64,000 nucleotides of DNA from IMG/VR virus record IMGVR_UViG_3300028624_000004, positions 113,541 through 177,540 of that record. One strand, given 5' to 3'. Position numbers and translations under genes: made by a program. This document shows, in pieces, positions 11,761-64,000 of this stretch (position 1 is its first letter; each line of letters begins with the position of its first letter). The notes beneath the pieces were generated by a model. It ran no database searches, was not told where the DNA came from, and saw only the letters and a program-made list of their open reading frames with translations. The stretch is from a virus. Taxonomy: Duplodnaviria; Caudoviricetes.

Positions 11761-12180
11761 ATGAACTACGACGAGGATTATGTCAAGGATCTGGAACTCC
11801 GGATTGAGCGTCAACAGGAGCAGATTGATAAATACTCTATGTTCATCAAGCGACTTGACGAACTCAAAATCAAAATGTCGATGCAGGACTGTTCGCAGTT
11901 CATTAACCCAAAGGCATTTATCAAGTGGCTTGAAAATAGTAGCAAGTGGAAGCTATTTGACACGATTGAAGATTCTCATGGTAAGACTGGGCAATTTCGT
12001 CATGCAAACGGTCGTAAGTTCTCTATTCGCGTTAAAGCATATGACAAGGGGGCAGAACAGGCTCAGTTACTTGATGTAGTCAATGCATTTCAGCATGTAT
12101 GGGACACATGGCTTTATGACCACAAAGGATGTGGTGTTATTTCGCTGATTATTGATATAATGGAGTACGAAGATGATTAA
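11761..12180 (+). CDS. Coiled-coil-leader family protein
   Basis: MNYDEDYVKDLELRIERQQEQI. Confidence 0.7.
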   Translation: MNYDEDYVKDLELRIERQQEQIDKYSMFIKRLDELKIKMSMQDCSQFINPKAFIKWLENSSKWKLFDTIEDSHGKTGQFRHANGRKFSIRVKAYDKGAEQAQLLDVVNAFQHVWDTWLYDHKGCGVISLIIDIMEYEDD

Positions 12181-31741: not shown

Positions 31742-32035
31742 TCAAGGAGTCTTTTTGAAGTTTCTGTTGGTTTTCTTTTCAGCAACACTAATGAACTTAC
31801 TGAGGATGTCAAATTCTTCTTTTGTAAGATAGCTACTTTCTGTGGTAAAGTAAAGCTTCCCATGAACATTACAGGATAGAAATATTGTCCCTGATAGTAG
31901 AATCGAATCTTTGGCATTGGGGTCTATATAGGTATATCTTCTCACAATGTCAAAAGCATTTTCATAGGCTTCTATCTTGTTACGGAGTAGCTCGTTTTCA
32001 GCTTCAATGGACTTGATGTAGGCTTGGGTGGTCAC
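31742..32035 (-). CDS. Coiled-coil-leader family protein
   Basis: MTTQAYIKSIEAENELLRNKIE. Confidence 0.7.
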   Translation of the reverse strand: MTTQAYIKSIEAENELLRNKIEAYENAFDIVRRYTYIDPNAKDSILLSGTIFLSCNVHGKLYFTTESSYLTKEEFDILSKFISVAEKKTNRNFKKTP

Positions 32036-34227: not shown

Positions 34228-34434
34228 TCACCACCACAGGTGCGGTGCCCACTCGCCAAACAGCTTCAGTGCCTTCTGCGCCTGGGCATGTTTCTTTTTG
34301 TCGTAACCATACCAGTCGTCGCTTGCCATAAACTCGAAGCCCACAAGCATCTCTTCCAGTATCTCCTTCCACTTCTTCTCGGTCAAGTCTCCAGGGAAGC
34401 CGTTGTGAAGCTCAATGAACCTACGGAGTCGCGG
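34228..34434 (-). pseudogene. 5'-truncated paralog of 39657-40058
   Basis: PRLRRFIELHNGFPG...GFEFMASDD...KALKLFGEWAPHLWW* with no cognate start. Confidence 0.8.
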
Positions 34435-34484
34435 AGAAGTTCATTCTCAGCTTCGATGGATTTGATGTAGAGAGCGTCGGTCAC
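34383..34484 (-). CDS. Orphan coiled-coil leader module (33 aa), out of frame with downstream paralog
   Basis: GTG start; MTDALYIKSIEAENELLRDSVG...*. Confidence 0.6.
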   Translation of the reverse strand: MTDALYIKSIEAENELLRDSVGSLSFTTASLET

Positions 34485-36323: not shown

Positions 36324-37889
36324 TCACACACCCTGTTCGATGAATCGGATGACATCTTCAATGTTCATAACGCTCGTCGGGCAAACCATGAGAAGTTCCT
36401 TCATCATGCTATTAGCCAGGATGCGAGCCTTGTCCTCGGGAGACATGACCTTTCCTTCCTTTTTGCCTTTCTTGTCACCCTTCCTCTTGATAGTCTCGTT
36501 TTTGCCATTATCGTGGGCGTCATTTGTGTGCATGGCATCGGAGGTCTTGCCTGACGAAGATCCGGTAATATTCAGCGAGTTGAGAAACTCGGCGTCCTTG
36601 TCGTTGATAAGCATGCCGACAATCGTGTTACCAAAGATATTCTCGTAGTAGCCCTCGAAAGTCATCTTACGCTTCATATCAATGAAACGCTGAACGTCAA
36701 TCTGGTCGAAAGTGATACCATCATCAGAAGTGTAGATCGGGCAGCAATCAAGAACCTCACGAATAACCTCAAGGTACTGTGAACCCTTGTTGGTAGCCTG
36801 ACGAAGCTCAGCCATGCGGTGAACGCAGTGAAGGACTCGGTTGATGTTCATGTCATAAACATAGACACCCTTGCCGTACCGATCATCGCTCGGCTTACGG
36901 GGGGACTGGCAACGGAAGGCAGTCTGGATCCACTCTGACGGACTCTTGCAGTCGTTCATGAAGACCACAGCATCGCACCACGGAAGTGTAACGCCAGTCT
37001 TCAACTGGTCAACTACAATGACAATGCTGCCCTTCTCTTCTGTCGGAAGCCAGTCATTATGGACCTTGTTATACAGGGCAGTTACATCGTTCTCCCGTGA
37101 AGTGGTCCAGAACACATTGTATTTCTTACCGACCATCTTCTCCAGCTTAGCACGAAGAGCCTCAACACACTTGGAACTCTCGACCGTGATAAGAACCCCC
37201 TTGCAGTTCTTCCGAATCAAACTGTTTTCATTGCGCTGATAGGCACCAATGCCAAAGATCATCTTCAGACCATGCTCAACTGCCTCGTCATACTCAAAGA
37301 ACCCCTTCTCGTTGACGGAGAGAAACTTCTTGAAGGTGAACCCCTCGTCCTTGCTATAAACCGAAGCAAGTTCCTTGATGCTCTCTGCCTTGACAGTCGG
37401 GCAGATAAAGTGAATCTGCTCGAAACGCTGATAGGCATCATGACCGGAATTCTTCATCTGCATTTCATCGACCAGATCCCACATATGGGTGTTCTCAATT
37501 TCGAACCGACCATATGACAGGTTGCGCCCAGGGGTAGCCGACATACCGATCAGATACTTGTAGTCGATCAACTCAAGAAGAGCATCGGTACGCTCGGTTT
37601 CGACACCAAGGTGAATCTCGTCAATGCCCACAACATCGAACTTGACATTGCGAATAGCATCGAACTTCTGCTTTGACCATACGCCAGCATCTTCATCAGC
37701 CTCTCCCTTGCCATCCTGAAGAGAGACGAGAAAGACATTGACAGTATTCTTGGCAATGTACAGTTCCTCACCCTTACGGACATTGATGATGTTGTAGCCC
37801 TGATAACCGTCCCACTCCATGAAAGTTTCAACCCACTGTTGGTTGAGAATGGGGTAGGAGGACATAATGAGGACATTCATGGAAGGCAT
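36324..37889 (-). CDS. SF2 helicase/restriction-type ATPase, C-terminal part (motifs Ia-VI)
   Basis: VLIMSSYPILNQQW, GIDEIH, GMSATP, TGVTLP.CDAV, WIQTAFRCQSP; lacks Walker A. Confidence 0.85.
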   Translation of the reverse strand: MPSMNVLIMSSYPILNQQWVETFMEWDGYQGYNIINVRKGEELYIAKNTVNVFLVSLQDGKGEADEDAGVWSKQKFDAIRNVKFDVVGIDEIHLGVETERTDALLELIDYKYLIGMSATPGRNLSYGRFEIENTHMWDLVDEMQMKNSGHDAYQRFEQIHFICPTVKAESIKELASVYSKDEGFTFKKFLSVNEKGFFEYDEAVEHGLKMIFGIGAYQRNENSLIRKNCKGVLITVESSKCVEALRAKLEKMVGKKYNVFWTTSRENDVTALYNKVHNDWLPTEEKGSIVIVVDQLKTGVTLPWCDAVVFMNDCKSPSEWIQTAFRCQSPRKPSDDRYGKGVYVYDMNINRVLHCVHRMAELRQATNKGSQYLEVIREVLDCCPIYTSDDGITFDQIDVQRFIDMKRKMTFEGYYENIFGNTIVGMLINDKDAEFLNSLNITGSSSGKTSDAMHTNDAHDNGKNETIKRKGDKKGKKEGKVMSPEDKARILANSMMKELLMVCPTSVMNIEDVIRFIEQGV

Positions 37890-48456: not shown

Positions 48457-48849
48457 CTATGCAGAAAGTTTTTCAAGACTCTTGTCGCACTTTAGCTCGA
48501 CAAGAAACTCGTCAACCAAATCTTCGCACTCGCTTGACACAGTTGCTTTATGCGTATTGGTATACTTGATGAAGTTGCGTAAGTATTTCTTACCAACCAA
48601 TTCAAGTTCTTTTTGCGATGGCTCCCATTCTCCATCTTGATCGACTATTGATTTATACTTATGCAGTGCTGTAGCCAACTGGTATATAGTGTCAAGTGAT
48701 TCTTTTATTACTTCTTGGTATCTACTCTCTTTATCTTCCTGGGTTTCGTTTATATTATCCAATAAGAGTTCAGTTTCCTCAAGTTTTTTTACTAAGGTTT
48801 CATTTTGCTTTTCGAGGTCGTGCTCGTAAAGCGTTGACGTGGATTCCAT
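48457..48849 (-). CDS. Coiled-coil-leader family protein
   Basis: LYEHDLEKQNETLVKKLEE. Confidence 0.7.
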   Translation of the reverse strand: MESTSTLYEHDLEKQNETLVKKLEETELLLDNINETQEDKESRYQEVIKESLDTIYQLATALHKYKSIVDQDGEWEPSQKELELVGKKYLRNFIKYTNTHKATVSSECEDLVDEFLVELKCDKSLEKLSA

Positions 48850-51598: not shown

Positions 51599-51629
51599 GT
51601 GATACCTCAATCGTTATTTATAGTTAAAC

Positions 51630-51660
51630 AAAAAGAAACTCCGGACTTAGCCCGGAGTTC
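51630..51660 (-). terminator. Rho-independent terminator
   Basis: aactccgg-N7-ccggagtt followed by T-run on minus strand. Confidence 0.7.
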
Positions 51661-51735
51661 CCAAACCCAAAATGGGTTTCCATTTACATCTCCACAACTA
51701 CTCTCTCCACTACCTACTACGCCACACCAATCCGA

Positions 51736-52332
51736 TCACCGCTCCTTCGACTTCTCTTCCAACATCTCCTTTGCCTTCTCCAGCGTAATCTCGTTGGTGA
51801 TGTAGTTCACGAACTTCTCGAATGCCACACCCTGAGTACGATGGTAGAGCCACACCTTCTTCGACTTCTCGAACAAGTTCTTTCCTTCGGGGGAGTTAAG
51901 ATCAAACCTCTCCTGCCAGTTGAAGTTGCTTTCACCCTGGTTCTGCTCAATCTCGACATCGACATACTGGCGATCAATGTCGTGAACGATACGAAGCGAA
52001 TAGACCTTGTGGGTCAGGTCGTAGTCATAGGGGTGGTCGGGGGTCCAGAGGTCAGGCGAATCAAGCAGCTTGATTGCGTTCTCATAGAGCCGAGCAGCGA
52101 CGGTCTGAGTGGCAGACAACTGTCCTTCGAAGCCCTTCTTGGCACGAGCGACGAGTTCAGTAGCAGAGTACTGAGCCTTGTCAATCTTGAGGCACTTCTC
52201 AAGCGCAGTACATCTGTTCATCCAAACGTGGTTGTCTTCCTTGAGACGATCATTTTCGGCTTCAAGATCCTTGACATACTGTGGGTCAAGGTGGTTAGTT
52301 GCGGGTTTAGCTCCCGTGGTTGCTTTCAACAT
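51736..52332 (-). CDS. Coiled-coil-leader family protein
   Basis: QYVKDLEAENDRLKE; own promoter and AAGGAG RBS. Confidence 0.75.
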   Translation of the reverse strand: MLKATTGAKPATNHLDPQYVKDLEAENDRLKEDNHVWMNRCTALEKCLKIDKAQYSATELVARAKKGFEGQLSATQTVAARLYENAIKLLDSPDLWTPDHPYDYDLTHKVYSLRIVHDIDRQYVDVEIEQNQGESNFNWQERFDLNSPEGKNLFEKSKKVWLYHRTQGVAFEKFVNYITNEITLEKAKEMLEEKSKER

Positions 52333-52384
52333 TATTGTATCTCCTTGGGTCTTATTCTAACGAGGGTTCTTGGGAACGCAAGAG

Positions 52385-52858
52385 TTATTTGTAAGCACCT
52401 TTTATAGTGTGATGCTTCTCTGCGTCAACTATCACACACATGTCTGGATTACCATTGAAAAATCCACGAATGAATGTCTCTGCGTCACTTAATGAAAAAA
52501 AACATGGGGTTCTGGTTACTTCGCTACTAAGTGGATGCCAGAAATCATTGAAAGCATTACCAGTCAGTTCAATACGGAAGCCATGTTCGGGGTATCTATA
52601 CATTCCATATTTGAGCGTGTGGTCGGTTGAATTGAATACTTCAGTCACGGTGAATCTTTTTACTCCACCAAGATAATAATGCCATACATTAGTATCTTTC
52701 CCTTCTAGTCGGGATGTGAAGTAATATCTGATAAGCTTACATCTCATAGAATCTACAAGCATCCTTAGACGCTCGTTATCAGCTTCAAGATCCTTGAGAC
52801 GCCTTAGAATTTCGGCGGTACTATTATTGACTTTTTTGGTAGATGGTCTAGTACCCAT
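52385..52858 (-). CDS. Coiled-coil-leader family protein
   Basis: RLKDLEADNERLR. Confidence 0.7.
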   Translation of the reverse strand: MGTRPSTKKVNNSTAEILRRLKDLEADNERLRMLVDSMRCKLIRYYFTSRLEGKDTNVWHYYLGGVKRFTVTEVFNSTDHTLKYGMYRYPEHGFRIELTGNAFNDFWHPLSSEVTRTPCFFSLSDAETFIRGFFNGNPDMCVIVDAEKHHTIKGAYK

Positions 52859-53226
52859 AGGAACTCTTGTTCATTGATTATCTCAGTTCCTACTCGTTTT
52901 GCAAACTTATTCTTTTCTGTATCTGTGTTCTTGTCGTTGGTAACGAGAAACGATACACCATGCGACATCGTAGAACATGGTTGTCCACCAGCAGCACGAA
53001 CAAGATCATATGCCTTATCTCGCGTCATTGTTTTCAGTGGTCCCGTAAAACAAAAGCTATTTCCCCTGAATTTTACATATCTCTTCAAGAAGCTAATTTC
53101 GTCACCAAGCTTAGCTATGTGTTCCTCGTATTGCTCGCAACGCCTCTCTAGTTCTTTTGCATAGCTTTCTTCATTTTCTTCTTGTCTCGCTTGTCCTGCT
53201 TCTTGGGATCTGTCTTTTGCTCGCAT
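52804..53226 (-). CDS. BRCT-domain protein with coiled-coil leader
   Basis: SYAKELE...; GNSFCFTGPL..MTR..A..LV...GG...VSFLVT...K...A...G..IINEQEF. Confidence 0.82.
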   Translation of the reverse strand: MRAKDRSQEAGQARQEENEESYAKELERRCEQYEEHIAKLGDEISFLKRYVKFRGNSFCFTGPLKTMTRDKAYDLVRAAGGQPCSTMSHGVSFLVTNDKNTDTEKNKFAKRVGTEIINEQEFLWVLDHLPKKSIIVPPKF

Positions 53227-53390
53227 GTCTGCTCCCCACATATTTCTTTTTGTCTTTTATCTATATGAATAGCTAATGAAGTTAGTAAAAAAAGCTTATC
53301 AATGTCGGCTGATGCGTGGCTCAAACCAGCGTCTATGAATTCACATAATGACTTTGATATTATAGATGCGTTTTTACGATTGTCGTTCAT
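53148..53390 (-). CDS. Hypothetical protein
   Basis: ATG 8 nt after TATAAT. Confidence 0.5.
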   Translation of the reverse strand: MNDNRKNASIISKSLCEFIDAGLSHASADIDKLFLLTSLAIHIDKRQKEICGEQTCEQKTDPKKQDKRDKKKMKKAMQKN

Positions 53391-53416
53391 ATGCTGGTAT
53401 TATATCATGATATGAT

Positions 53417-53450
53417 AAAAAAGAAAGCCCCATATTTCTATGGGGCTTCT
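53417..53450. terminator. Rho-independent terminator
   Basis: aagcccca-N-tggggctt with flanking A/T runs. Confidence 0.7.
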
Positions 53451-53479
53451 TCTAAACTCCTAGTTTTTTTCTCTTTTGG

Positions 53480-53836
53480 TTATTCTTCTTTATCTACTGG
53501 TAATCCTAAAGTTTTTTGTGCGAAGACCTTTGGGTTGATATCAAGTGCCTTGAGCAACTCTCCGACCACATATACATCAGGGTCGTCCGAAAGAAGCTCC
53601 TTGAAGCACTGCTTGAACTCCTTTACAGAGTCATGGTCAAACTTTTTACGCTTCTTGGTTTCTTCGTTGATATAGTATTCCGACAAACTTTTATCTACAT
53701 AGCCGTTATCATAAATGTCAAGTACTACCTTAGCAATCTGCTTTGGCTTCATTACCTTATCATCTTCGTTTGGGGTGCGCTTTGGCATCGTAATCTCCTT
53801 GTGAGATTTATTATACCCACTCCTAAAATAAATCAA
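53480..53836 (-). CDS. Hypothetical protein (likely start MPKR at 53788)
   Basis: AAGGAG before MPKR. Confidence 0.6.
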   Translation of the reverse strand: MIYFRSGYNKSHKEITMPKRTPNEDDKVMKPKQIAKVVLDIYDNGYVDKSLSEYYINEETKKRKKFDHDSVKEFKQCFKELLSDDPDVYVVGELLKALDINPKVFAQKTLGLPVDKEE

Positions 53837-54903
53837 TACAGGGTAGGTAGAATAAACTCATTATTGAGATTAACATCTACATCTAACCCAAACAAGGTCA
53901 TAAACTTAGTGAAACTTTCGCGAAGAGTGACGATGATAAAGTTTACTAGCTTTTCAATATATTTTTTGACTGCATTATATCCTTTACCGATGTAGTTTCC
54001 AATGTCGGACATTACACCTTCAAGATACATCGACTCAGAGGTTACATCGGCACTTGCGTTCTTTTGTTTTACATCGAATCTTATTTTCCCTGATGGTTGT
54101 ACCATGAATGACGGCTGAATGATAGAAGTCATTTTGTTTATCCATGCATCGTTAGAAACGGGAGTCATGTAAGTGGCATCGGAAATAAAGTCTGGATTAC
54201 GAAGTGCTTTCTCAGAAGACATCTTTTGCTGAGTATACTTTATAACCAACATAGTATTGCATGCTGCTAGACTGTCACCAAATTTGAATGTGCCAGTAAC
54301 ACCATTTTTTATAAATGCTTTCTTCAGGGCTATATTATCAAAAGTTGACGTAAACTCCTTTGCTATTGCATCTTGGAGAACTCTTGATTTGTCTGCTTTT
54401 GATAGTCCCTTTTCATATTCCAGTATTCCCGACACTGCCTTTGTAACTCTTGAAGTTATCTCATCTTTTAGTTCTTTGGCGTTGTCTATGATGCTATGGA
54501 AGCAAATAGATGTATCAATCATTTGGTGTGCAAACAACCAACCAGCGTTACACTTCAGTGATATTCTCTGGGTGGAAGTATATAAGTCTGTCTTGGGTGT
54601 TCGGTTGGCTGAGATTGGATTATAGTCAGGAAATAGTTGACGCATTTTCTCTATGTAGCTCGAAGATAGCTCTCCTTTTATTTTTGCTGATCCATAGTGC
54701 TTGGCGTCATCGCCAATATTCATTCCTTTACTTTTCAATATGTCAATGACTTTCTTTCCAGTTGGAAGAAGACTTCTGTATTTTGGTGTTCTTCCGTTTA
54801 TAACGTCAACTAACACTTCTTCTATTTGTAATGTTATGTTTCTATCTGAATACCCATGGGAGTCTTCACACATAAAAAAGTTTGAGAAAGCCACTGTTGT
54901 CAT
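53833..54903 (-). CDS. Late protein with restriction-endonuclease-like TPKTD...ISLK motif
   Basis: RTPKTDLY...RISLK. Confidence 0.6.
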   Translation of the reverse strand: MTTVAFSNFFMCEDSHGYSDRNITLQIEEVLVDVINGRTPKYRSLLPTGKKVIDILKSKGMNIGDDAKHYGSAKIKGELSSSYIEKMRQLFPDYNPISANRTPKTDLYTSTQRISLKCNAGWLFAHQMIDTSICFHSIIDNAKELKDEITSRVTKAVSGILEYEKGLSKADKSRVLQDAIAKEFTSTFDNIALKKAFIKNGVTGTFKFGDSLAACNTMLVIKYTQQKMSSEKALRNPDFISDATYMTPVSNDAWINKMTSIIQPSFMVQPSGKIRFDVKQKNASADVTSESMYLEGVMSDIGNYIGKGYNAVKKYIEKLVNFIIVTLRESFTKFMTLFGLDVDVNLNNEFILPTLY

Positions 54904-54905
54904 AT

Positions 54906-55700
54906 TTACACCTTTGTATTGGGGTAGTCCGATTGAAAGCCCTGGTTATATCCACCAGTAGCTCCATAACCTTTTTGATTGATAAACTCATCAAGTTCCT
55001 GTCCTTCTTCATTGAAGAACTTATCCGTGAAATCTACGAAGTCTCTTCCAAGCTTTCCTGGGTTGATAAAGTGAAAACCAAGATTTTTTGCAAACTGCTC
55101 GTCAGCGCCATCGTAGCTATCACCAATCATATAACACTTTTCCCAATCTGGCTTTCCGTATTTCTCAATGATAGCCAATCCCATCGCTGGGCTTGGCTTG
55201 GCTGCTTTACCAGCTTCTTTTGTTTCTTTACCTAAACCATTCTTGACTAATGAAACATTACCACCATCTGTAACAAATATAGAAGCATCCGAGCAGAAGT
55301 AAACAGGGAAGTCAACTCCAAGCTTCTTCACTGTCTCGTCCATGACCTTTCCACATCCTATAGCAGCATCGTCTAGTGTAGCCTGATCGGTCATGAAATC
55401 TGGAACATATTGACGTCTACGAAGCGGTCCCTTCTGATTAGATGTTCCACATACCGTCCAACCAGCATCCATCCAAGTCCGAATCGCTTGACCCATTCCT
55501 GGGAATACATTGACTTCTTCTTTTGTCAATGGCGGTCTTCCATCACCATCGGGCAAGTGTATAGCATGTCTAACAGTGTCATCAAAGTCTAAAAACAAAT
55601 ACTTTATGCCCTTGTTTTCGAAGGTTGAGCTAAAAGCATTCAACGAATCACTTTCAATAAGAAACTTGCTACTCCAGTTTTTCATGGGATATCTCCACAC
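54906..55700 (-). CDS. HAD-IIIA phosphatase (polynucleotide 3'-phosphatase/GmhB-like)
   Basis: LFLDFDDTV, TSNQKG, KPSPAM, MIGDS...DEQFA. Confidence 0.85.
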   Translation of the reverse strand: MWRYPMKNWSSKFLIESDSLNAFSSTFENKGIKYLFLDFDDTVRHAIHLPDGDGRPPLTKEEVNVFPGMGQAIRTWMDAGWTVCGTSNQKGPLRRRQYVPDFMTDQATLDDAAIGCGKVMDETVKKLGVDFPVYFCSDASIFVTDGGNVSLVKNGLGKETKEAGKAAKPSPAMGLAIIEKYGKPDWEKCYMIGDSYDGADEQFAKNLGFHFINPGKLGRDFVDFTDKFFNEEGQELDEFINQKGYGATGGYNQGFQSDYPNTKV

Positions 55701-55701
55701 C

Positions 55702-56574
55702 TTATTTATCAGGCTGAAGATTCTCTATAAGCGCCTCTTTATGTTTCTGCCATTGCTCTTCTGCTATCTTTTCCATGAGTGCAAAATCCTGACAATCAAG
55801 AGGAAGAGAAGTTGGTGGGGCAATGTAATGATTATTAAACCCCAGAAGGGTATGAGCCTGATACTCTTCCATTCCTGTAGCAGCATACATCGCAACTTCT
55901 ATTGCTTTAGGTGCCCATTCCAGTAAACCACGAATTCCACATGCTTTTGAATATCCCTCAAGAGTATCACATGCTATATTGACATTATAAAGATTCTCAA
56001 GAGTTGCTCCGGATCTTATAACTTCTGATATCACACACATACTTGGGTTGTTGCAAGCCATTCCACCGTCAATAAAACATTCTCCATTTATTTCATATGG
56101 GTTGAAATAGGTTGGTGCTGCTGAAGATGCCAAAACCACATCAACGGAACTAATATCATCTTTCCACGACTTCCAGAACTTTGGTTTTATACTTTTCCCA
56201 CTGATGTTAACGGCATATGCCATATACTTGGTTTTCGAAGTGTTGATTGGGAAGTTTATATATTTCCTAACAATTTCCTGTAAGGAGTCTCGGCTGTATT
56301 TTGCACGAAATAAAGAAGTAATAAACCAACGTTTATTAGAAAAAATCTTAGGAATAAACTCACGATATAATTCAACGGTTTCCTTGGCAGAATAACCTTT
56401 AGCTAACATAGCTCCAATAATAGAGCCAGTTGAGACTCCACCTATCATGTCAAATAGCTGATATGTTTTATACTTATTATCAAATGCTTCTTCAAGACGC
56501 ATAAGTATATAAGCAGACATATACCCCTTGGAGCCACCACCATTTAGAGATAATGTTTTCATATCTTCCTCCAA
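55702..56574 (-). CDS. Patatin-like phospholipase
   Basis: LSLNGGGSKG, GGVSTG, ASSAAPTYF, IDGG. Confidence 0.92.
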   Translation of the reverse strand: MEEDMKTLSLNGGGSKGYMSAYILMRLEEAFDNKYKTYQLFDMIGGVSTGSIIGAMLAKGYSAKETVELYREFIPKIFSNKRWFITSLFRAKYSRDSLQEIVRKYINFPINTSKTKYMAYAVNISGKSIKPKFWKSWKDDISSVDVVLASSAAPTYFNPYEINGECFIDGGMACNNPSMCVISEVIRSGATLENLYNVNIACDTLEGYSKACGIRGLLEWAPKAIEVAMYAATGMEEYQAHTLLGFNNHYIAPPTSLPLDCQDFALMEKIAEEQWQKHKEALIENLQPDK

Positions 56575-56577
56575 TTC

Positions 56578-57129
56578 TTATTTATCGTATAGGTATTGAT
56601 GTAGATCTTTACAATCAAGAATTTCTTCGACTATATACTTATGCAATGATTTTTCTGTTGGTATCATTGTCTTATAGTAATTGTCGAATTCCTCATCCCA
56701 CATGGGGAGAATTCCCGGTGGTTTGTCCATTCCAATAGATATGGAGTACTTTTTCTGCATTGGGTAAACGATATGGACAATATAGGTTCTTTCAAGAGAA
56801 CCAAGATACCAGCATTGAAAATCTATCATGCAAATGGTTTTGGGACTTCTTCTTTTCTTTCCATCCACTCTTTCAACATGGGTAAGAATAGCATCAGCCA
56901 CATAATCAACCACTACTTCAAGTGCAGAATCAATATTTTGATGGATAAAGGGATAATGATCGTATGTCGGCAATGGTGATTTCTTACGGTGGTTGATGAC
57001 GAATGTTGGTCTATAGTCAAACAAATAAATTTCTTTTTCAAGCTTCATAAGCTTGCTCGTAGTATCTTCTATGGCATCTCTGAGAGCCTCGTTCTGCTTC
57101 TCTACTTCTTTGGTGTATGCGTCTTTCAT
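56578..57129 (-). CDS. Coiled-coil-leader family protein
   Basis: MKDAYTKEVEKQNEALRDAIE. Confidence 0.75.
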   Translation of the reverse strand: MKDAYTKEVEKQNEALRDAIEDTTSKLMKLEKEIYLFDYRPTFVINHRKKSPLPTYDHYPFIHQNIDSALEVVVDYVADAILTHVERVDGKKRRSPKTICMIDFQCWYLGSLERTYIVHIVYPMQKKYSISIGMDKPPGILPMWDEEFDNYYKTMIPTEKSLHKYIVEEILDCKDLHQYLYDK

Positions 57130-57581
57130 TTACCCTCCCCAACAACTCGAATAAGCTCACCCGTGCGTCCCAACGTCAAGAGGTTCTTGACCGAACCATC
57201 AACACATCTAGTTTGACCGAACCTGATTATGTCAATGTTCCAGCTTCTTATAGTGTCAACTTCATGGATGGGAACGGGAATTATCCTTCTCAGATAAGAA
57301 GAGTCTGAGTGGACTGGTGACGATTCCGCTTGAAATACGAATGACGCAACTTCTTCTTTGAGATACTTATGAGCATCTTCATAGTTACTGAAATATGCTA
57401 TATCATAGTTACATAAAGTTTTTGTTGTTATGGCAACTTTATAGAACTTCTCTTGTAGCTCCTTCACACGCTCCTTGAGATGCTCTTCGCGAATCTCAGC
57501 ACCTTCAAGCTTATCACGAAGCAAATCCACTAATGCTTCTAAGTCCTTGTTATATACTTCAGGATGGCTTGAATGTAACAT
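57126..57581 (-). CDS. Coiled-coil-leader family protein
   Basis: VYNKDLEALVDLLRDKLE. Confidence 0.7.
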   Translation of the reverse strand: MLHSSHPEVYNKDLEALVDLLRDKLEGAEIREEHLKERVKELQEKFYKVAITTKTLCNYDIAYFSNYEDAHKYLKEEVASFVFQAESSPVHSDSSYLRRIIPVPIHEVDTIRSWNIDIIRFGQTRCVDGSVKNLLTLGRTGELIRVVGEGK

Positions 57582-58032
57582 TGAATGCCTTTTTTCTTGG
57601 ATCATAGTACATAGCCTCGTTCTTGTCTTCAAATACTCTGAATCCATCATACCACATTCTACCATCTATTTCTTTGTTTTTTGCTCCACTTATGAAAGAA
57701 ATCTGATACATGATATTGGCTCTCTTTATTCCCATGACTCTGGATATTTCTGACCTAACACTATTATAGCACCAATACTTTTCATAATGGGCGTTGATAA
57801 ACTTGACACACTCAGATTGTCTGGAATGGGCAAATACAGGAAGGGTTACATACCCACTCTTCTTGTTACCCAAGAGAATTGATACCAGTCTAACTTCACC
57901 CCTGTCGTAGTGATACGACATCGCATCTCTTTCTTTGACTAATGTATCTTTCTCCTGCTCAACCCTTTCTATATGGTCGCGGAGCTTCTCATTTTCTTCT
58001 TCGATACTTTTGATGTAGTTGAGGTCAGTCAT
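57559..58032 (-). CDS. Coiled-coil-leader family protein
   Basis: MTDLNYIKSIEEENEKLRDHIE. Confidence 0.75.
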   Translation of the reverse strand: MTDLNYIKSIEEENEKLRDHIERVEQEKDTLVKERDAMSYHYDRGEVRLVSILLGNKKSGYVTLPVFAHSRQSECVKFINAHYEKYWCYNSVRSEISRVMGIKRANIMYQISFISGAKNKEIDGRMWYDGFRVFEDKNEAMYYDPRKKAFNVTFKPS

Positions 58033-58373
58033 CGGTATTTACTCAGTTTCTCAAATGCTTCTTGTATTTTCTTATTCAGACTCTCAAGGTCGTAGGTGTT
58101 TGTTTCATATTTCTTACGCATGTCAACGTGTGGTTCACACTCTACTCCAATTTTAGAAAGAGCCAAATATTCTTCTTCTGTAATGTCTTTGTTATTCGAA
58201 CCACCCCTTACAATTACACTATAAGTCTTCTTCCCTTTCATATCTGTCGTAGATGATAATAGAAGTAATCTGTTGATCTGCTCGAAACAAACAAGAAATC
58301 CATCAATTCTTTCAGTTAAGTATTCATTTTGCTTTTCGATATTTTTAACATATTCATCGTCATAGTTACTCAT
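58029..58373 (-). CDS. Coiled-coil-leader family protein
   Basis: MSNYDDEYVKNIEKQNEYLTERI. Confidence 0.75.
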   Translation of the reverse strand: MSNYDDEYVKNIEKQNEYLTERIDGFLVCFEQINRLLLLSSTTDMKGKKTYSVIVRGGSNNKDITEEEYLALSKIGVECEPHVDMRKKYETNTYDLESLNKKIQEAFEKLSKYR

Positions 58374-58764
58374 TTGTTTCTTCCTTATTCTTACGAAGCT
58401 CTTCCATTTGCTTTTGATGTTCCAATACCTTCTCAACTTCTTTCTCTATTTCCTCTTGGTTTAAGGCATTTCGTATTATGGGCATGGCTATATTGCCGAA
58501 GTTGGTCGGAAACTCGGGGAACTCCATGGGAGTTACTATCTGAGCGTCTATTCCAACCAACACCAACACTTCTTCATCGACAAGTGGTATCATTTCACGA
58601 AGGGGTCTAAGACGTAAGAAGAACCTTCCTTCTTTATCTTTTTTCACTTCCATATTATCCCGAATCAGCTTATGTAGAGTAGCATCCTGTTTCTCCATGT
58701 TGCTCCTAAGCTTCTCGTTCTCAGCTTCCAGTTGCTTGATGTAATTTGCAGTTGCGTCATCCAT
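58366..58764 (-). CDS. Coiled-coil-leader family protein
   Basis: MDDATANYIKQLEAENEKLR. Confidence 0.75.
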   Translation of the reverse strand: MDDATANYIKQLEAENEKLRSNMEKQDATLHKLIRDNMEVKKDKEGRFFLRLRPLREMIPLVDEEVLVLVGIDAQIVTPMEFPEFPTNFGNIAMPIIRNALNQEEIEKEVEKVLEHQKQMEELRKNKEETNE

Positions 58765-58774
58765 AGTATTTCCT

Positions 58775-59218
58775 TTATAGATCAATCTTTTCTGTTTCTG
58801 GCGCGAATCCAAAAGTCCTGTTTTGAAATATGCTCCATTGTCCAGTGTTATTGTTTTTTATAGCAAATTTCATTGCCTGAATCTTACTCTCCAAATCGTT
58901 TAGCCAGATTTTTTTCATTATTGGGTATAACATTGGCATTCTTTTATAAGTATATTCACTATTGGGATGCCATTGAATTGACCAAACAGCTATATTATAA
59001 TCCGGACTTCTCCGTGTTCCTCGACATGTTTTATTGTTTATATCACTTGATAAGAGCAAATTTGTTATGTCTTTTTTAAATTCTTGAAGGTCGGAGGCAG
59101 TAGCATGATATTTTCTTTTAGTATCATCACATTCTATTATCTGCTTCTCAAGAGCATCTCTAAGCTTCTCGTTCTCGGCTTCCAGTAGCTTTTCATAGAT
59201 AGTCGTAGCTTCGGGCAT
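58775..59218 (-). CDS. Coiled-coil-leader family protein
   Basis: MPEATTIYEKLLEAENEKLRDALE; ATG 6 nt after TTGACT-N17-TAGAAT. Confidence 0.75.
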   Translation of the reverse strand: MPEATTIYEKLLEAENEKLRDALEKQIIECDDTKRKYHATASDLQEFKKDITNLLLSSDINNKTCRGTRRSPDYNIAVWSIQWHPNSEYTYKRMPMLYPIMKKIWLNDLESKIQAMKFAIKNNNTGQWSIFQNRTFGFAPETEKIDL

Positions 59219-59245
59219 ATGTCCATTCTATCATGGGTTATGGTA

Positions 59246-59440
59246 TTAGTCAAATATGTGATGACATCTCATATAATATTCACCCGTTTCTTTCCAGTAG
59301 ACATAGGCTTGCCTTTTTCTATTATTGTACGATTTACCAGCTAATACCTCTTTGTATTGCCTCGACCCGATATGGTTATTGAACATATAGTCTCTTCCAT
59401 ATACTCCCCATTTGCCTTTTTTCTTATACAGAGTTGTCAT
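59246..59440 (-). CDS. Small paralog (…HNRKRQ/NNRKRQ…HIFD family)
   Basis: Paralog of 59469-59666. Confidence 0.65.
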   Translation of the reverse strand: MTTLYKKKGKWGVYGRDYMFNNHIGSRQYKEVLAGKSYNNRKRQAYVYWKETGEYYMRCHHIFD

Positions 59441-59468
59441 TATTCACATTCTACCATAATTGTCGGTG

Positions 59469-59666
59469 TTAGTCAAATATATGCTCATATCTCATGTAGT
59501 GACTTCCCAAGTGCTTCCAATCCCAATGCCTTTGTCTTTTTCTGTTGTGGCTGCATATCGTAGGAAACGCTCTATGAAATAGACGGGAGCATCTGTGATT
59601 GGTGAACATATATTGTCTTCCGGATAATATACCAAATATATCTTTGTTTCCACAGAGTTTTGACAT
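59469..59666 (-). CDS. Small paralog (…HIFD family)
   Basis: GRQYMFTNH...HNRKRQ...YMRYEHIFD. Confidence 0.65.
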   Translation of the reverse strand: MSKLCGNKDIFGILSGRQYMFTNHRCSRLFHRAFPTICSHNRKRQRHWDWKHLGSHYMRYEHIFD

Positions 59667-60119
59667 TCATTCACCATACTTCTTTCTTTTTATTGACTTG
59701 TCAGTGATCGTCTTATATTCCTCGCCAGTACAATACACTCGTCCCCGACTTAGCTTGTATATAGAAAAGGCTTGATTACCTTTTGCTTTACAAGTCCTAA
59801 AATCAATATCCCACACTATTCTTGCTGTCATTGCATTCTTATCTTTCTTATACGCATAACACAACATTGATACAATAAGGGAGGTATCCTTTCCAATCAT
59901 ATCAGTGTGGATGAAGTCTATCCATCTCCTACATTCGCCTTTATCAAGCGTATAATCAGACTGAAGAATAGTCCCGTCTTTATTACATATCCATCTCTCA
60001 TAAGAAAATATATTACGCTTCTGTTCAATCTCGTTGGTCAACAGGGCAGACTCCAAGGAAGCTTTGAGCTTCTCGTTCTCGGCTTCAAGCTGCTTGATAT
60101 AAAAATCTAAATCTCCCAT
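59667..60119 (-). CDS. Coiled-coil-leader family protein
   Basis: MGDLDFYIKQLEAENEKLKASLE. Confidence 0.75.
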   Translation of the reverse strand: MGDLDFYIKQLEAENEKLKASLESALLTNEIEQKRNIFSYERWICNKDGTILQSDYTLDKGECRRWIDFIHTDMIGKDTSLIVSMLCYAYKKDKNAMTARIVWDIDFRTCKAKGNQAFSIYKLSRGRVYCTGEEYKTITDKSIKRKKYGE

Positions 60120-60367
60120 AAGCCAATCCTCTGGAGTTGCATATTATCGGTGTCTTGATTTACATCGCAAGTGTTGTTTCTCTTCAACTTGGAGAACCTT
60201 TTCCAATCCTTTTGAAATTTCTTTTTATATCCGACAATGTTGTATTCAAATATAAACTGAGTATAATTCTCGAAGCTGCGGAGCCATAGAGGAACCTTGA
60301 CCGTCAAACGACTCCAGCCTTCCATTTGACCCAGAGATAGCTGCTTACGGATTACTTTTATTTTCAT
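60107..60367 (-). CDS. Hypothetical protein
   Basis: ATGA overlap chain. Confidence 0.55.
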   Translation of the reverse strand: MKIKVIRKQLSLGQMEGWSRLTVKVPLWLRSFENYTQFIFEYNIVGYKKKFQKDWKRFSKLKRNNTCDVNQDTDNMQLQRIGLWEI

Positions 60368-60828
60368 TTGGACATTTTAGGGTGGTTTGATTTTATATCT
60401 TCCAGAAATTTCTTAGCAATCGCTTCAGTATTCTGGATTTCTATTTGTTCTGTCATCCACATAATAGCATTTTCGTTTATCGTCTTCAAGTCTTTTGGGC
60501 GAGTGTTCTCAACTCTCTCCTTTCCAAACCCAAGAGAATACTCACATGCACGCATGGCTGATGTAAGTGTCAACTCTCGGTTAGGTTCGCTCCAGTACCA
60601 TTCCTTTCGATCAAACCTGATGACATAGCACCTGTAATTACCCATAAATGATTGGACAATAACCGCAAGACAGAAGTTTCCTAAGCAGAGTCGATAATTT
60701 ACCTCAGAGCCGTTTATCTCTTCTTTCCAAGTAGCTCCACAATAGTCAATAGTCTCTTGGGCAGCTTCAAGCTGGCGACGAAGTTTCTCGTTCTCTTCTT
60801 CAAGTTGCTTGGTGTAGATATCGGTCAT
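60364..60828 (-). CDS. Coiled-coil-leader family protein
   Basis: MTDIYTKQLEEENEKLRRQLE. Confidence 0.75.
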   Translation of the reverse strand: MTDIYTKQLEEENEKLRRQLEAAQETIDYCGATWKEEINGSEVNYRLCLGNFCLAVIVQSFMGNYRCYVIRFDRKEWYWSEPNRELTLTSAMRACEYSLGFGKERVENTRPKDLKTINENAIMWMTEQIEIQNTEAIAKKFLEDIKSNHPKMSK

Positions 60829-61109
60829 TTCTTTCGGTATCCTGCTTCTGCTTTGGCTTCTTCAATGCAGTCGTTGACTATTTTTTGAATAAAGATGTTA
60901 TTTTTGGTGCGACGAATAGGGGCAACAATTTCCACATATTTTTCGTCTATTCGGGTGTGATTCAATACATTCTTAGACGGCGTATACATCGTAGCCAGAT
61001 GGTCTATGATAAGGTCATAGCACCCAGACTTGAGTCCGTTTTCCTCAAGCTTCTTGCGAAGCTTCTCATTTTCTTCTTCAAGCTGTTTGACATAGGTTTC
61101 GTCTATCAT
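60825..61109 (-). CDS. Coiled-coil-leader family protein
   Basis: MIDETYVKQLEEENEKLRKKLE. Confidence 0.75.
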   Translation of the reverse strand: MIDETYVKQLEEENEKLRKKLEENGLKSGCYDLIIDHLATMYTPSKNVLNHTRIDEKYVEIVAPIRRTKNNIFIQKIVNDCIEEAKAEAGYRKK

Positions 61110-61429
61110 CCCCACACCTTCTTTCTTTCGCCTGTTATTACGTCAAGCGAGTAGATGTCAAGTATGAGACTAAGACCAGCGTATTCGCTTTTAGCATAAT
61201 CTTGGTCAACACTAACCAATAGTCGCATTCTTCCACCCATATGAAGAAAAGCTATAAAGACATCTTCAATCGTCTTGAAGTATCTTTTGTTGTCCTCTAA
61301 TTGAATCAGGTTGTCGCCCTTTGGTTTGACATAATACAACAGATTTTCCTTGACAAGCAATTTGTCAATGACTTTATTTAGTCCCTCTATATGGGCTTCA
61401 AGCTGTTTGACATACTCTTCATCGACCAC
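61106..61429 (-). CDS. Coiled-coil-leader family protein
   Basis: GTG start after AGGAG; VDEEYVKQLEAHIEGL. Confidence 0.7.
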   Translation of the reverse strand: MVDEEYVKQLEAHIEGLNKVIDKLLVKENLLYYVKPKGDNLIQLEDNKRYFKTIEDVFIAFLHMGGRMRLLVSVDQDYAKSEYAGLSLILDIYSLDVITGERKKVWG

Positions 61430-61988
61430 GAGGAATACTCCTGTAAGAACGAATGCTTCTGATGTAATCATCGACTTCATCAAGTGGACACAGCCCAAGC
61501 ATGTTCACGAAGTCCGGAAGAACCTTGGCATAGTCCCAGTTAGGGCTAAGACAGATGACCACGGAGTTTATATTTCTTAGGCTTATATCTTCTATTCCAA
61601 GCCTAGTCTTGTACTTTAGAGGATAATCTTTCTTCTTTCCATATGGGTTACACAACCCGTTTCTCTGTCTGATACACTCGGTGTAGCTTGGATACCTCCA
61701 CTCAAACTCCTTGACACTCTTGGGCATGAAGTTACCCCAGGTTCCTTCATTTAACTCATCACCAGAATCGACAACTATATCGTTATGGAAGTCTATATTA
61801 ATAACCTTTTTGGTTCCTTTTGGAATAAGACCATATTCTACAATGGCATCATGATACTTGATGACATGGGAATACTTGACGCTATCCATTAGTTGCCTAA
61901 TGAAACATGAAGCTGCTCGGAGGTCGGACAACGATGGATTGCGGTTGGTCCAATAGTCAAGGTCAACCGTGACGAGAGTATGGGGCAT
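61419..61988 (-). CDS. UPF0489/arginase-fold-like protein
   Basis: VDLDYW, HDAI, INIDFHND, NEGTW, ICLSPNW. Confidence 0.6.
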   Translation of the reverse strand: MPHTLVTVDLDYWTNRNPSLSDLRAASCFIRQLMDSVKYSHVIKYHDAIVEYGLIPKGTKKVINIDFHNDIVVDSGDELNEGTWGNFMPKSVKEFEWRYPSYTECIRQRNGLCNPYGKKKDYPLKYKTRLGIEDISLRNINSVVICLSPNWDYAKVLPDFVNMLGLCPLDEVDDYIRSIRSYRSIPRGR

Positions 61989-62018
61989 GCTTTATCATAA
62001 CAACGGATTTACCAAAAG

Positions 62019-62052
62019 CAAGGGGAGAGCCTCATAAGAAGCTCTCCCCTTT
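62019..62052 (-). terminator. Rho-independent terminator after Ro60/TROVE gene
   Basis: aggggagagc-N10-gctctcccct. Confidence 0.8.
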
Positions 62053-62072
62053 ATATCACAGATGTTTTTCTT

Positions 62073-63680
62073 TTACTGCTTCTGCTCGTACATCTTTGAC
62101 ATTTGAGCAGCGTAACGAATCACCCCATCAGACCAGCCTCCTAGTATGAAGGTTCGGTCATAGTTCTCCGGAACCAGCGTATCAGTGTACGAAGCAACCT
62201 GAACCAAATAAACCATGACCTTCGGGTTGATCTTGCGATACTCCTTGATCAGCTTAGGAACGTGGATATGGTTACTTCCCTTCCAACCATATTCCTTCAT
62301 ATACTGACGAGAACATGCTTCAGTTCCGTACAAGCCACCGTGTCCAGCCTGCATGTCGCTGTAGATGAAGATATGATCCCAATGCTCCTTCTCCTTGATT
62401 GCCTTGTCGAAGAACAACCAGATTCCGTTCTCGGTGCTTCCACCGATCCCATCACCAAGGTTGTTAGCCTTCTTCAAGTCATCGAAGATGGATGAAGACT
62501 TGCGAACCGCGAAGGTTTCAAGCTTGTCACCGAAGACACCAACATGTCCGTTCTCGGCGCACTTTGCAGTGACAACTGCGGTAAGGTTGGCAATCTCGGA
62601 TACCTTGACACTACCATAGGCAGAAGTCATGGTTCCATGAGCAGATCCGGAGTTGTCACAGAGCGACATGACATTACCCTTGAACTGCGGAAGGTTCTTG
62701 AGAGAAATCTTCATGCAGTCTTCAACGGCATCCATGACAGATGACTTACCCTGCGATTCGACTGCCTTGAAGGCACTCCAGTAACGGAACGGAAGCTGCT
62801 TTCCAGTCTCGGCAGTTGCAACAAGCTTATCCAAGTAGACACTGGTATCTACACCCTTCTCTTGGAAGTTACGCAAGTTGCGAAGCAGAGCCATGTGACC
62901 CATGACTTCGACAGCCTTGGTCCAAGTCTCCTTGGTCGATCCCTCCTTGGAGATGATCGCTTCCCAAGTCTCTCCACTGGACTTCAACTCGCCCTTGGCG
63001 AGCTTACCGATAGCATCAGACTTTGGGTGACAGATGTTCATGACATCGACGGTCTTTACTTGATGTCCCTCAAGACGATACTTCGCAAGCGAGTACTCAC
63101 TGCAAGCGGAGAGCGCCTTTGCCCAAGCCTTCTTCAAGGAGTTAGGAATTGGCTTACCAAATGCGGACTTCTGGTAGGCAAGTCCCGTTGCTGGCTCGTC
63201 TGCACGCTTGATGATTTCTGGAGCATACTTCTGAACCAATCCAAGTCCCTTAGCAGACTTGTGGTTAGCAGCACGAACGAGAATGACCTGTGGAGTAACA
63301 CGGATGTTGTCCTCGTTACGAAGAGCAACAGCGACCTTGAGAGTCTCTTCGACATTGAACGCAAGAGCCTCGTCAATCGTCTTCTCCATGATTTCCTTCG
63401 GAGACATACCACGCCACTCCTGCGGGTCGATAGCGTCGAGTACGCTACGAAGCTCCTTCACATCGGCATCGGAGAGGCGATAGTCAGGGGCGTGACGAAC
63501 CTTACGCTTGTCATCGGCGTCTCGGTTATAGTATTGGGGCTCACCGAAAAAGCACGACGAAGCGGCTATACGGAGCTTGTTAAGTGGGTTCTTGATATCC
63601 CAACTGGTCCCACCCATATAATTGAGATGAGAGTCCTTGGTGATGTCAACTGGAATCTTCTTTGGGTTAATGCAATTCAT
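62073..63680 (-). CDS. Ro60/TROVE-domain RNA-binding protein with C-terminal vWA domain
   Basis: R....IRVTPQ, PIPNSLKKA, EYSLAKY, HPK, TWE, MALLRNLRN, QLPFRY, DNSGS MIDAS, SDMQ. Confidence 0.92.
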   Translation of the reverse strand: MNCINPKKIPVDITKDSHLNYMGGTSWDIKNPLNKLRIAASSCFFGEPQYYNRDADDKRKVRHAPDYRLSDADVKELRSVLDAIDPQEWRGMSPKEIMEKTIDEALAFNVEETLKVAVALRNEDNIRVTPQVILVRAANHKSAKGLGLVQKYAPEIIKRADEPATGLAYQKSAFGKPIPNSLKKAWAKALSACSEYSLAKYRLEGHQVKTVDVMNICHPKSDAIGKLAKGELKSSGETWEAIISKEGSTKETWTKAVEVMGHMALLRNLRNFQEKGVDTSVYLDKLVATAETGKQLPFRYWSAFKAVESQGKSSVMDAVEDCMKISLKNLPQFKGNVMSLCDNSGSAHGTMTSAYGSVKVSEIANLTAVVTAKCAENGHVGVFGDKLETFAVRKSSSIFDDLKKANNLGDGIGGSTENGIWLFFDKAIKEKEHWDHIFIYSDMQAGHGGLYGTEACSRQYMKEYGWKGSNHIHVPKLIKEYRKINPKVMVYLVQVASYTDTLVPENYDRTFILGGWSDGVIRYAAQMSKMYEQKQ

Positions 63681-63772
63681 ATATTTACTGCCTTGTGAAA
63701 GGAGGTTAATTGTAGTGTCAAGCAGAGTTGCTCAACAGATTATATTCTACCACATGTTTTCTAAAAAGTCAA
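63681..63772 (-). promoter_or_regulatory. Sigma70-like promoter and two-hairpin 5' leader of Ro60 gene
   Basis: TTGACT-N17-TAGAAT; TGTTGAGCA-actc-TGCTTGACA; CTCCTT-tcac-AAGGCAG covering the SD. Confidence 0.6.
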
Positions 63773-64000
63773 TACATTCTTCTGTTACTCGGGTCCATAA
63801 TATCAACTATAGTTGTCATAACTTCTGTCAAGTCATTTTGAAGACGATCATGGAGAACCTGATCGACTTTTCCATCTATCATATACAAGCGTCGATTTAC
63901 CTCAATCATATATGTAGATCCAATTTCCCCGTTATAGTCGCATGGATATATAGACCCAGAATAGGGAATGTTGGCGAAAACCTTGTAGCCCTTTTGTTCA
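63769..64000 (-). CDS. N-formylglutamate amidohydrolase-like protein, C-terminal part (truncated by window edge)
   Basis: ...KVFANIPYSGSIYP...YMIEVNRRLYM...*; not in ORF track. Confidence 0.65.
   Translation of the reverse strand, partial: EQKGYKVFANIPYSGSIYPCDYNGEIGSTYMIEVNRRLYMIDGKVDQVLHDRLQNDLTEVMTTIVDIMDPSNRRMY

Follow-up and report, generated by a model that had tools for sequence, protein, structure and literature searches.

A conserved N-terminal helix resembling a short leucine zipper marks a family of small, putatively early genes in an uncultured phage of the T4 superfamily

The capsid-targeting sequence (CTS) of bacteriophage T4 was reportedly described by Mullaney and Black in 1996. 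It spans 10-19 residues and ends in a site for the prohead protease gp21. The internal proteins that carry it at their N terminus (IPI, IPII, and IPIII) are diverse, fast evolving, and share only this sequence, their loci vary between relatives, and the payloads are thought to serve counter-defence (reviewed in PMC3012670 and PMC9026906). Other viral multigene families, such as the F-box, BTB, and ankyrin-PRANC expansions, also join one constant small module to many variable parts; in F-box or BTB proteins, the module attaches to an established hub, Skp1 or Cul3, and the variable part recognises substrates. Here, we describe a gene family that recalls these systems in a stretch of 64,000 nucleotides (the window), which is the final 64 kb (positions 113,541 to 177,540) of the IMG/VR virus contig IMGVR_UViG_3300028624_000004 (G000; 177,540 bp, 76% complete according to CheckV); coordinates follow the numbering of the window unless prefixed contig, L, or G. 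An array of ten genes at 56578-61429 (A1 to A10), together with several dispersed genes, encodes small proteins that share an N-terminal peptide, hereafter the tag. This motif is real, specific, and strictly N-terminal, and the family that it marks is undescribed. The best explanation, to which we give about an even chance, is that of an early multigene family, specific to this lineage, whose N-terminal zipper is conserved and serves in dimerisation or docking.

Ten proteins, eight from the array and two dispersed, have at residues 4-20 a helix of the form Y-[IVT]-K-x-[LI]-E-x-[EQ]-N-E-x-L-R. The strict regular expression Y.[KE]..E..NE.L has 10 matches in the six-frame translation of the 177.5-kb contig, all on the minus strand and inside the window: eight array genes (A1 and A3-A9), the gene at 31742-32035, and a 33-aa stub at 34383-34484. 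A hidden Markov model (HMM) trained on the eight array copies only retrieves these two dispersed genes (E-values of 1.6e-8 and 7.5e-8), scores 51736 (E 0.0025), 48457 (E 0.008), A10 (E 0.008), and 52385 (E 0.046) more weakly, and is not significant for A2 (57126; E 1.2) or 11761 (E 6.4). The reversed-sequence control of this model produced a single match at E 7.6e-4, so that values of about 1e-3 are borderline when taken alone and the four weaker genes are insecure by score. A10-like genes (in the related contigs L017 and L018) and A2-like genes with the same variant tags occupy the same array positions in relatives, and P0034, a homologue of 11761, has a full tag; these relatives support A10, A2, and 11761. 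The 10-mer TCAAGGATCT, present three times where 0.2 occurrences are expected, lies in the K-D-L-E variant of 11761, 51736, and 52385 and ties these three genes together. The preliminary description of this DNA had about 17 genes sharing the tag: the motif stands where it was placed, but membership divides into 11 solid, 3 borderline, 2 degenerate, and 1 unsupported gene. The unsupported one is 52804, which was said to join the tag to a BRCT domain; this domain is confirmed (Pfam, 2.9e-7), but the protein does not match the tag HMM.

Could chance, or generic coiled-coil composition, produce such a pattern without any specific module? Similar strings do exist elsewhere: in the zipper of the IS66-type DUF6444 protein P0037, which like P0042 has a weak, sub-threshold match to the bZIP family of Pfam, and at the C terminus of an HNH endonuclease (HNH_3, 4e-12) encoded at L006:5552-6190 and in five identical IMG/VR loci, which ends in EYIKELEAENEYLRAEIQRL. 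The latter came from a scan of IMG/VR with a DNA pattern, separate from the protein profile search described below, and the same zipper string thus also occurs as a C-terminal module in unrelated phage proteins. Yet, the 10 strict matches fall on one strand within 30 kb, with none elsewhere on the contig outside these genes, and the reversed control gave just the one weak match. We also searched 1.84 billion representative proteins with a 40-column profile built from the nine best copies (E < 0.001). Around 35 of the 44 matches are to small proteins (34-216 aa) and start within their residues 1-7; the other nine or so are unrelated zippers, and those examined include P0037 and Cys-rich proteins with internal copies. 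Within the 177 kb, no other protein scores against the tag HMM, including the long coiled-coil scaffold. Generic coiled coils thus do not score as the tag does in the HMM scan that the preliminary description had proposed, and the chance explanation, which the distribution of the strict matches, the global profile search, and the HMM with its reversed control already refute, is extremely improbable. Known families offered no alternative assignment: Pfam and PHROGs searches with all ten array proteins returned only sub-threshold coiled-coil noise, and the motif strings of the family were not found in the searchable literature.

Column frequencies were computed from 72 non-identical tagged proteins. 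Hydrophobic residues occupy positions 2, 5, 12, 16, 19, 23, and 26, with an Asn at position 9, and the columns include N9 (88%), L12 (96%), L/I16 (84%), R13 (72%), and E8 (61%). They describe an amphipathic helix of about 25-30 residues whose core is formed by I/V2 (a), L5 (d), N9 (a), L12 (d), L/I16 (a), and L/I23 (a); in a parallel dimer, Glu8 (g) of one strand could pair with Arg13 (e) of the other. AlphaFold2 models place the helix at residues 3-28 of A8 and 4-34 of A7. The tag has the hydrophobic a and d positions over at least three heptads and the helical structure expected of a coiled coil, and the columns add the polar Asn within the core and opposite charges at g and e'. According to the rules of coiled-coil assembly, a pattern of this kind, as in Asn16 of GCN4, predicts an in-register, parallel, two-stranded zipper. 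The tag pattern thus fits a short parallel two-stranded leucine zipper, at least as far as residue patterns can tell. It shares with the GCN4/bZIP zipper the Ile/Val and Leu heptad core, the single Asn at a, and the Glu-Arg g-e' pair, and its opening K-Q-L-E resembles the start of the GCN4 zipper. However, bZIP proteins have a basic DNA-binding region before the zipper, whereas the tag begins 3-7 residues after the initial Met, these residues being acidic or polar, lies N-terminal to the globular part, and spans only some 3.5 heptads. Membership among bZIP transcription factors was rejected for lack of this basic region, and the window proteins have no significant match to bZIP in Pfam. The predicted complex of a tag homodimer scored 0.30 against a mark of 0.42, which is not evidence either way.

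The preliminary description had also proposed that the module is conserved as DNA. The strings on which this was based exist (a 20-mer present three times, a 19-mer present twice, and the 10-mer of the K-D-L-E variant, whose three copies all lie there), but their identity is close to what codon usage predicts, an outcome that the same description had named as one that would count against its reading: when all pairs of copies are pooled, identical residues use the same codon in 234 cases, against 216 expected from the codon usage of the genome. Conservation of the amino acids thus accounts for essentially all of the DNA identity. The DNA upstream of the copies is unconserved and consists of the unrelated 3' end of the preceding gene. 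Randomised synonymous sites and unconserved flanks indicate that selection acts on the peptide and that the copies are old. Two further explanations were dropped on these grounds: conservation through translation initiation or mRNA structure, as synonymous sites vary freely, and a conserved promoter or ribosome-binding-site cassette, as the upstream regions are unrelated gene ends.

The same data bear on the idea of a recombination cassette, in which gene conversion would keep the segment alike, or the segment would serve as a homology patch for shuffling C-terminal cassettes, in the manner of polymorphic toxin loci or of the promoter-stem-loop cassettes of T4. Exact identities of 19-20 nt among neighbours (A9/A10; A5/A6/A7) and a family of 57-nt repeats in six copies speak for it. 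However, the repeat copies are merely 63-74% identical, codon sharing exceeds expectation by 8% overall, and the closest pair, A9/A10, shares 7 of 8 codons where 3.5 are expected, which among 55 pairs does not reach significance. The flanks are unconserved, and L017, a 9-kb contig with 11 tagged genes that ends at the same patatin gene as the array, has a separate orthologue for every copy in unchanged order; the copies must therefore have been stable for long. Unconserved flanks, codon counts, and this synteny largely refute the cassette, which we regard as highly improbable.

In IMG/VR, a degenerate DNA pattern succeeded where scans with the TROVE protein encoded near the array, with A7, and with a 39-aa tag alignment gave no confirmed relatives. 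L017 shares its sample of origin with an 81-kb contig in which the major capsid protein gp23 is, over residues 1-130, 94% identical to that of this phage. The contigs L018-L020 carry A10-, A8-, and A7-like genes beside a TROVE gene, plus one more tagged subfamily. Two 100-kb IMG/VR contigs (G001 and G002), estimated at 37-44% of jumbo-size genomes, have five tagged genes each; no gp23 was found in these fragments. Orthologues are 71% identical over the 17 residues of the tag and 42% over the remainder, i.e., the tag is the better conserved part. In the converse direction, 12 IMG/VR contigs with close gp23 homologues have no match to the tag, of which 11 are uninformative structural fragments (5-31% complete) and the twelfth, a single data point, is 90% complete, with a gp23 of 58% identity that does not have the E-Q-E-N propeptide variant. 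Neither the array, nor the tag, nor a 484-aa open reading frame (ORF) at 17703-19157 used as a context marker had a match by megablast or tblastn among 50,697 records of cultured phages (INPHARED). The whole stretch is present in 14 activated-sludge runs from 2019, which may be the source campaign itself.

What follows the tag is much more variable. Clustering by BLAST of the 72 proteins without their tags resulted in 16 multi-member subfamilies plus singletons, with zero cross-links, and profile-profile comparison of the 16 gave nothing above 25% probability except A4 versus P0009 (67%). HMMs of the subfamilies match no other gene of the contig, with the sole exception of the A5 subfamily, which matches gp23. 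However, alignment reveals a second motif about 45 residues past the tag, a short strand followed by [IL]-[TS]-x-[EK]-[ED]-[YF]-x-x-L-x-x-[IM]-[GD]-[IV], which is common to A4, A5, 31742, P0009/12, P0030, and P0024; these are therefore diverged paralogues. The C-terminal parts had been said to look unrelated by eye: for most of them, at least 16 types, no similarity is detectable by BLAST, HMM, or profile-profile comparison, but five or six subfamilies are paralogous. The second motif (A4, A5, 31742, and three subfamilies) and the link from A5 to gp23 thus provide part of the C-terminal homology that the preliminary description had named as counting against its reading. The AlphaFold2 model of A8 (predicted local distance difference test, pLDDT, of 70) has no convincing fold match, and the C-terminal part of A1 had no usable match in the ESM Atlas; the A7 model has a pLDDT of 64.

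These results also weigh on the hub model of the preliminary description, in which the tag would dock payloads onto one non-capsid hub (a protease or ATPase, RNA polymerase, or the replisome) and the family would be an adaptor expansion like that of the F-box or BTB proteins. The exposed positions Y1, K3, E6, and E10 are strongly conserved beyond the a/d core, there are at least 16 C-terminal subfamilies, and early expression is probable, all of which would suit such adaptors. Yet, the tag HMM reveals no hub candidate in the contig, no other protein of the 177 kb has the zipper or an obvious complement to it, no payload resembles a substrate-recognition domain, the BRCT protein is untagged, and part of the family consists plainly of diverged paralogues. 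We consider a single hub unlikely; the family looks more like a set of old, fast-diverging paralogues than like an adaptor-and-hub system.

The genes of the array overlap by ATGA or by a few codons and are thus tightly coupled. The contig contains four perfect TTGACT-N17-TAGAAT promoters. Three of these, each with the TG of an extended -10, have the orientation of the array genes (63772, 59476, and 59253). The last two (59225-59476, minus strand), of sigma-70-type consensus, belong to a tandem duplication of 223 bp that separates A7 from A6 (59224-59666, minus strand). Each copy of this duplication has one ORF of 64-65 aa (59246-59440 and 59469-59666), the two being paralogous (YMF.NH..SR...NRKRQ...W...G.YYMR..HIFD), with last codons that form the -35 box; they match no family. 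Of the T4 late-promoter box TATAAATA, the contig has 36 copies (contig positions 3302-165162), none of them at 51623-64000, the last 12.4 kb of the window. The missing box and the concentration of perfect sigma-70-type promoters in this last stretch give the contig the look of a clean early/late partition, and the array would be expressed early. Pieces of A2-A5 of 150-260 nt, 99-100% identical, are present in two biofilm metatranscriptome runs of one study, which is a weak sign of transcription, DNA carry-over being possible.

The phage has a head module of T4 type, with a portal, a Peptidase_S77 prohead protease (E 5.9e-35), gp23 (E 2.5e-95), and, encoded between the latter two, a 366-aa coiled-coil scaffold (contig 36469-37569). 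A near-identical relative (L023), in which T4_CASP was also found, adds T4-type gp13, gp15, terminase, sheath, tube, and baseplate genes. This gene content places the phage among the uncultured members of the T4 superfamily.

Several lines of comparison connect the A5 subfamily to the capsid. First, its HMM without the tag finds the gp23 of the phage itself (E 9.7e-6). Second, hhalign aligns the full-length subfamily with gp23 at 90% probability (E 1.7e-6), collinearly over gp23 residues 33-165, with the tag on residues 33-46 (QLLEQENRYFKDAL) and the alignment running to the VQPM block. Third, BLASTP gives 52% identity over 33 aa (RVFPE..VQPM..G; E 2e-10). Fourth, P0044 matches the Pfam family Gp23 (PF07068) with 30.7 bits, above the cut-off of 24.4, over profile positions 14-98; P0010 and P0026 stay below the cut-off, and the A5 of the window has no match. 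These comparisons point to homology between the A5 subfamily and the N-terminal part of gp23. The orthologues P0031, P0010, P0026, and P0044 carry FP.L..ND[LI]V[GS]VQPM, the most conserved stretch of gp23. By our reading, the VQPM block corresponds to the Gol segment, through which gp23 engages EF-Tu in Lit exclusion. The Gol segment of gp23 is conserved (PMC3014915). Orthologues with the VQPM block could be capsid-protein mimics. They nevertheless differ from gp23 in their size (130-190 aa), in having none of the remaining HK97 fold, and in their place in a putatively early array, and the A5 of the window itself has lost the FP..VQPM segment. A second capsid-like gene lies between the A8-like and A6-like genes of L017 (L017:2270-3010): its 246-aa product has a degenerate tag, and a propeptide-like N terminus, matches residues 282-387 of gp23, 106 aa in the C-terminal half, with 37% identity (E 5e-16), and is a truncated paralogue of the capsid protein within the early-gene array.

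Is the tag itself derived from the capsid protein? In the closest local alignment, L5, N9, L12, and L16 fall on L35, N39, F42, and L46 of gp23. A helix taken from the gp23 propeptide could target the scaffolding core of the prohead or pair with the propeptide of gp23, its payloads being packaged and ejected, or modulating head assembly or capsid-sensing immunity. The T4 head module of the phage, the precedent of the T4 internal proteins, the mini-gp23 of L017, and the collinearity of A5-like proteins with gp23, which sets the tag in the same L/N/hydrophobic/L register just before the L-x-E maturation site, all argue in this direction. Against it, the tag and the gp23 propeptide by themselves do not align significantly (hhalign P 0.014-0.07, probability 1-3%), and BLASTP of the L017 mini-gp23 points to another register, that of gp23 helix 1. 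No L/I-x-E is conserved past the tag: 33% of the proteins have a Glu at position 14, and 14% have one at position 18. A4 alone among the window members has one (L-T-E), whereas the gp23 homologues keep L-x-E. Furthermore, the array has sigma-70-type promoters and zero T4 late promoters, the isoelectric points range from 4.6 to 9.0 and are not uniformly basic, and no protein of the head module matches the tag HMM. A capsid-directed tag is accordingly rather unlikely in our estimation.

A more specific version, which we judge improbable, has a truncated copy of gp23 founding the family and its propeptide helix being reused as an address. The helix would still bind the scaffolding core, or the gp23 propeptide through a zipper pairing Asn with Asn, and a changing set of small proteins would be loaded into proheads by a second, independently evolved capsid-targeting system. 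Alternatively, the proteins would be early capsid mimics, some with a Gol-like segment, that interfere with capsid-sensing immunity. Were this true of the tag itself, an assembly signal of a structural protein would have been turned into a general address label, which is the logic that made the T4 CTS useful for packaging foreign proteins.

The comparison with the T4 CTS is instructive in both directions. Both concern the T4 superfamily, here a phage with prohead protease and scaffold, and a short conserved N-terminal peptide on dissimilar, fast-evolving small proteins with presumed counter-defence payloads and with loci that vary between relatives, so that the statement that no phage family of this architecture is known does not hold: the CTS is a precedent within the same superfamily. 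However, the tag, some 25 residues long, is a zipper helix without a conserved prohead-protease site (L/I-x-E), and its genes have predicted sigma-70-type instead of late promoters. Given the missing site and the early-looking promoters, the CTS appears to be the closest precedent for the family, not a system to which it belongs.

The array genes, all on the minus strand, differ in the detail of their tags. A1 (56578-57129; 183 aa) has YTKEVEKQNEALR at residues 5-17 (HMM E 3.8e-13), and its L017 orthologue adjoins the patatin gene. A2 (57126-57581) has the degenerate YNKDLEALVDLLR, and its orthologue holds the same position in the L017 array; its start is likely the ATG at 57581, preferred because the start of the longest ORF, at 57665, overlaps a -10-like box (TGgTAGAAT). 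They are followed by A3 (57559-58032; 157 aa; YIKSIEEENEKLR), found by both the regular expression and the HMM, A4 (58029-58373; 114 aa; YVKNIEKQNEYLT), whose second motif reads ITEEEYLALSKIGV, A5 (58366-58764; 132 aa; YIKQLEAENEKLR), the representative of the gp23-like subfamily, and A6 (58775-59218; 147 aa; YEKLLEAENEKLR). Beyond the duplication, A7 (59667-60119; 150 aa; YIKQLEAENEKLK) is modelled as the tag helix and a mainly beta domain, and A8 (60364-60828; 154 aa; YTKQLEEENEKLR) as the tag helix, a six-strand beta meander, and C-terminal helices; an untagged ORF of 86 aa (60107-60367) separates them. A9 (60825-61115; 96 aa) has YVKQLEEENEKLR, and A10 (61106-61429), which starts with GTG, has the diverged YVKQLEAHIEGLN, with Ile in place of Asn, a variant also present in its L017 and L018 orthologues.

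Among the dispersed genes, 31742-32035 (minus strand; 97 aa) combines the tag YIKSIEAENELLR with the second motif LTKEEFDILSKFI. The stub at 34383-34484 (minus strand) amounts to the tag plus 13 residues, and because its first 18 residues are nearly identical to those of the 95-aa homologue P0006, we read it as a micro-protein or else a paralogue that has been truncated. The protein database also contains products of 34-53 aa that are little more than the tag (P0015, P0029, and P0005); such products may be remnants, or free zipper peptides able to compete with full-length members. The borderline members, on the minus strand, are 51736-52332 (198 aa; YVKDLEAENDRLK at residues 19-31), 52385-52858 (157 aa; LKDLEADNERLR, which has no Tyr), and 48457-48849 (130 aa; YEHDLEKQNETLV). 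The degenerate member at 11761-12180, on the plus strand, has YVKDLELRIERQQ, and the BRCT protein (52804-53241, minus strand; 145 aa) consists of a coiled coil and a single BRCT domain and is encoded in the putatively early region.

The surroundings of the array include a gene for a patatin-like phospholipase (55702-56574, minus strand; E 1e-30), which closes it here and in L017 and is followed in the window by a gene for a HAD-type hydrolase (54906-55700). On the other side, a TROVE/Ro60-like gene (62073-63680, minus strand) lies downstream of the consensus early promoter at 63744-63772 and has a terminator with a 14-bp stem 3' of it (62020-62051). Neither Rfam nor tRNA scans detected anything in the window, and in particular no Y-RNA beside the TROVE gene.

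Taken together, the preferred reading is that of a lineage-specific multigene family with a dimerisation or docking zipper. In a clade of uncultured T4-superfamily phages of activated sludge, the array would encode small early proteins (about 95-185 aa) whose zipper helix dimerises them, with themselves or with one another, or docks on another coiled coil. Their divergent C-terminal parts would provide them with different activities, directed at the host or against its defences, in the early phase of infection. The family would have grown by 1) tandem duplication; 2) fast divergence; 3) truncation; and 4) probably replacement of C-terminal parts, with at least the A5-like branch descending from the N-terminal part of gp23. 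Some observations weigh against this reading. K3 (94%) and E10 (86%), at exposed b positions, and Tyr1 are conserved beyond the need of a homodimeric zipper, which hints at an additional common partner that reads the helix. Zipper dimerisation is a prediction from the residue pattern, and the early timing is one from the promoter consensus. For most subfamilies, with alignments of 2-9 sequences and two predicted structures of pLDDT 64-70, the C-terminal parts may or may not be homologous, and no payload has an assigned function.

Small early genes are the main reservoir of functions for host takeover and counter-defence in phages, and hardly any of them can be grouped by sequence. Here, a short and easily recognised helix at the N terminus brings together at least 11 of them from a single phage and dozens from its relatives, and the link of one branch to the Gol-like N-terminal part of the major capsid protein was unexpected. 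If the tag is only a dimerisation zipper, the family would be a tidy case of a fast-diverging phage multigene family, no more. The helix provides a handle for experiments and for mining this family from metagenomes.

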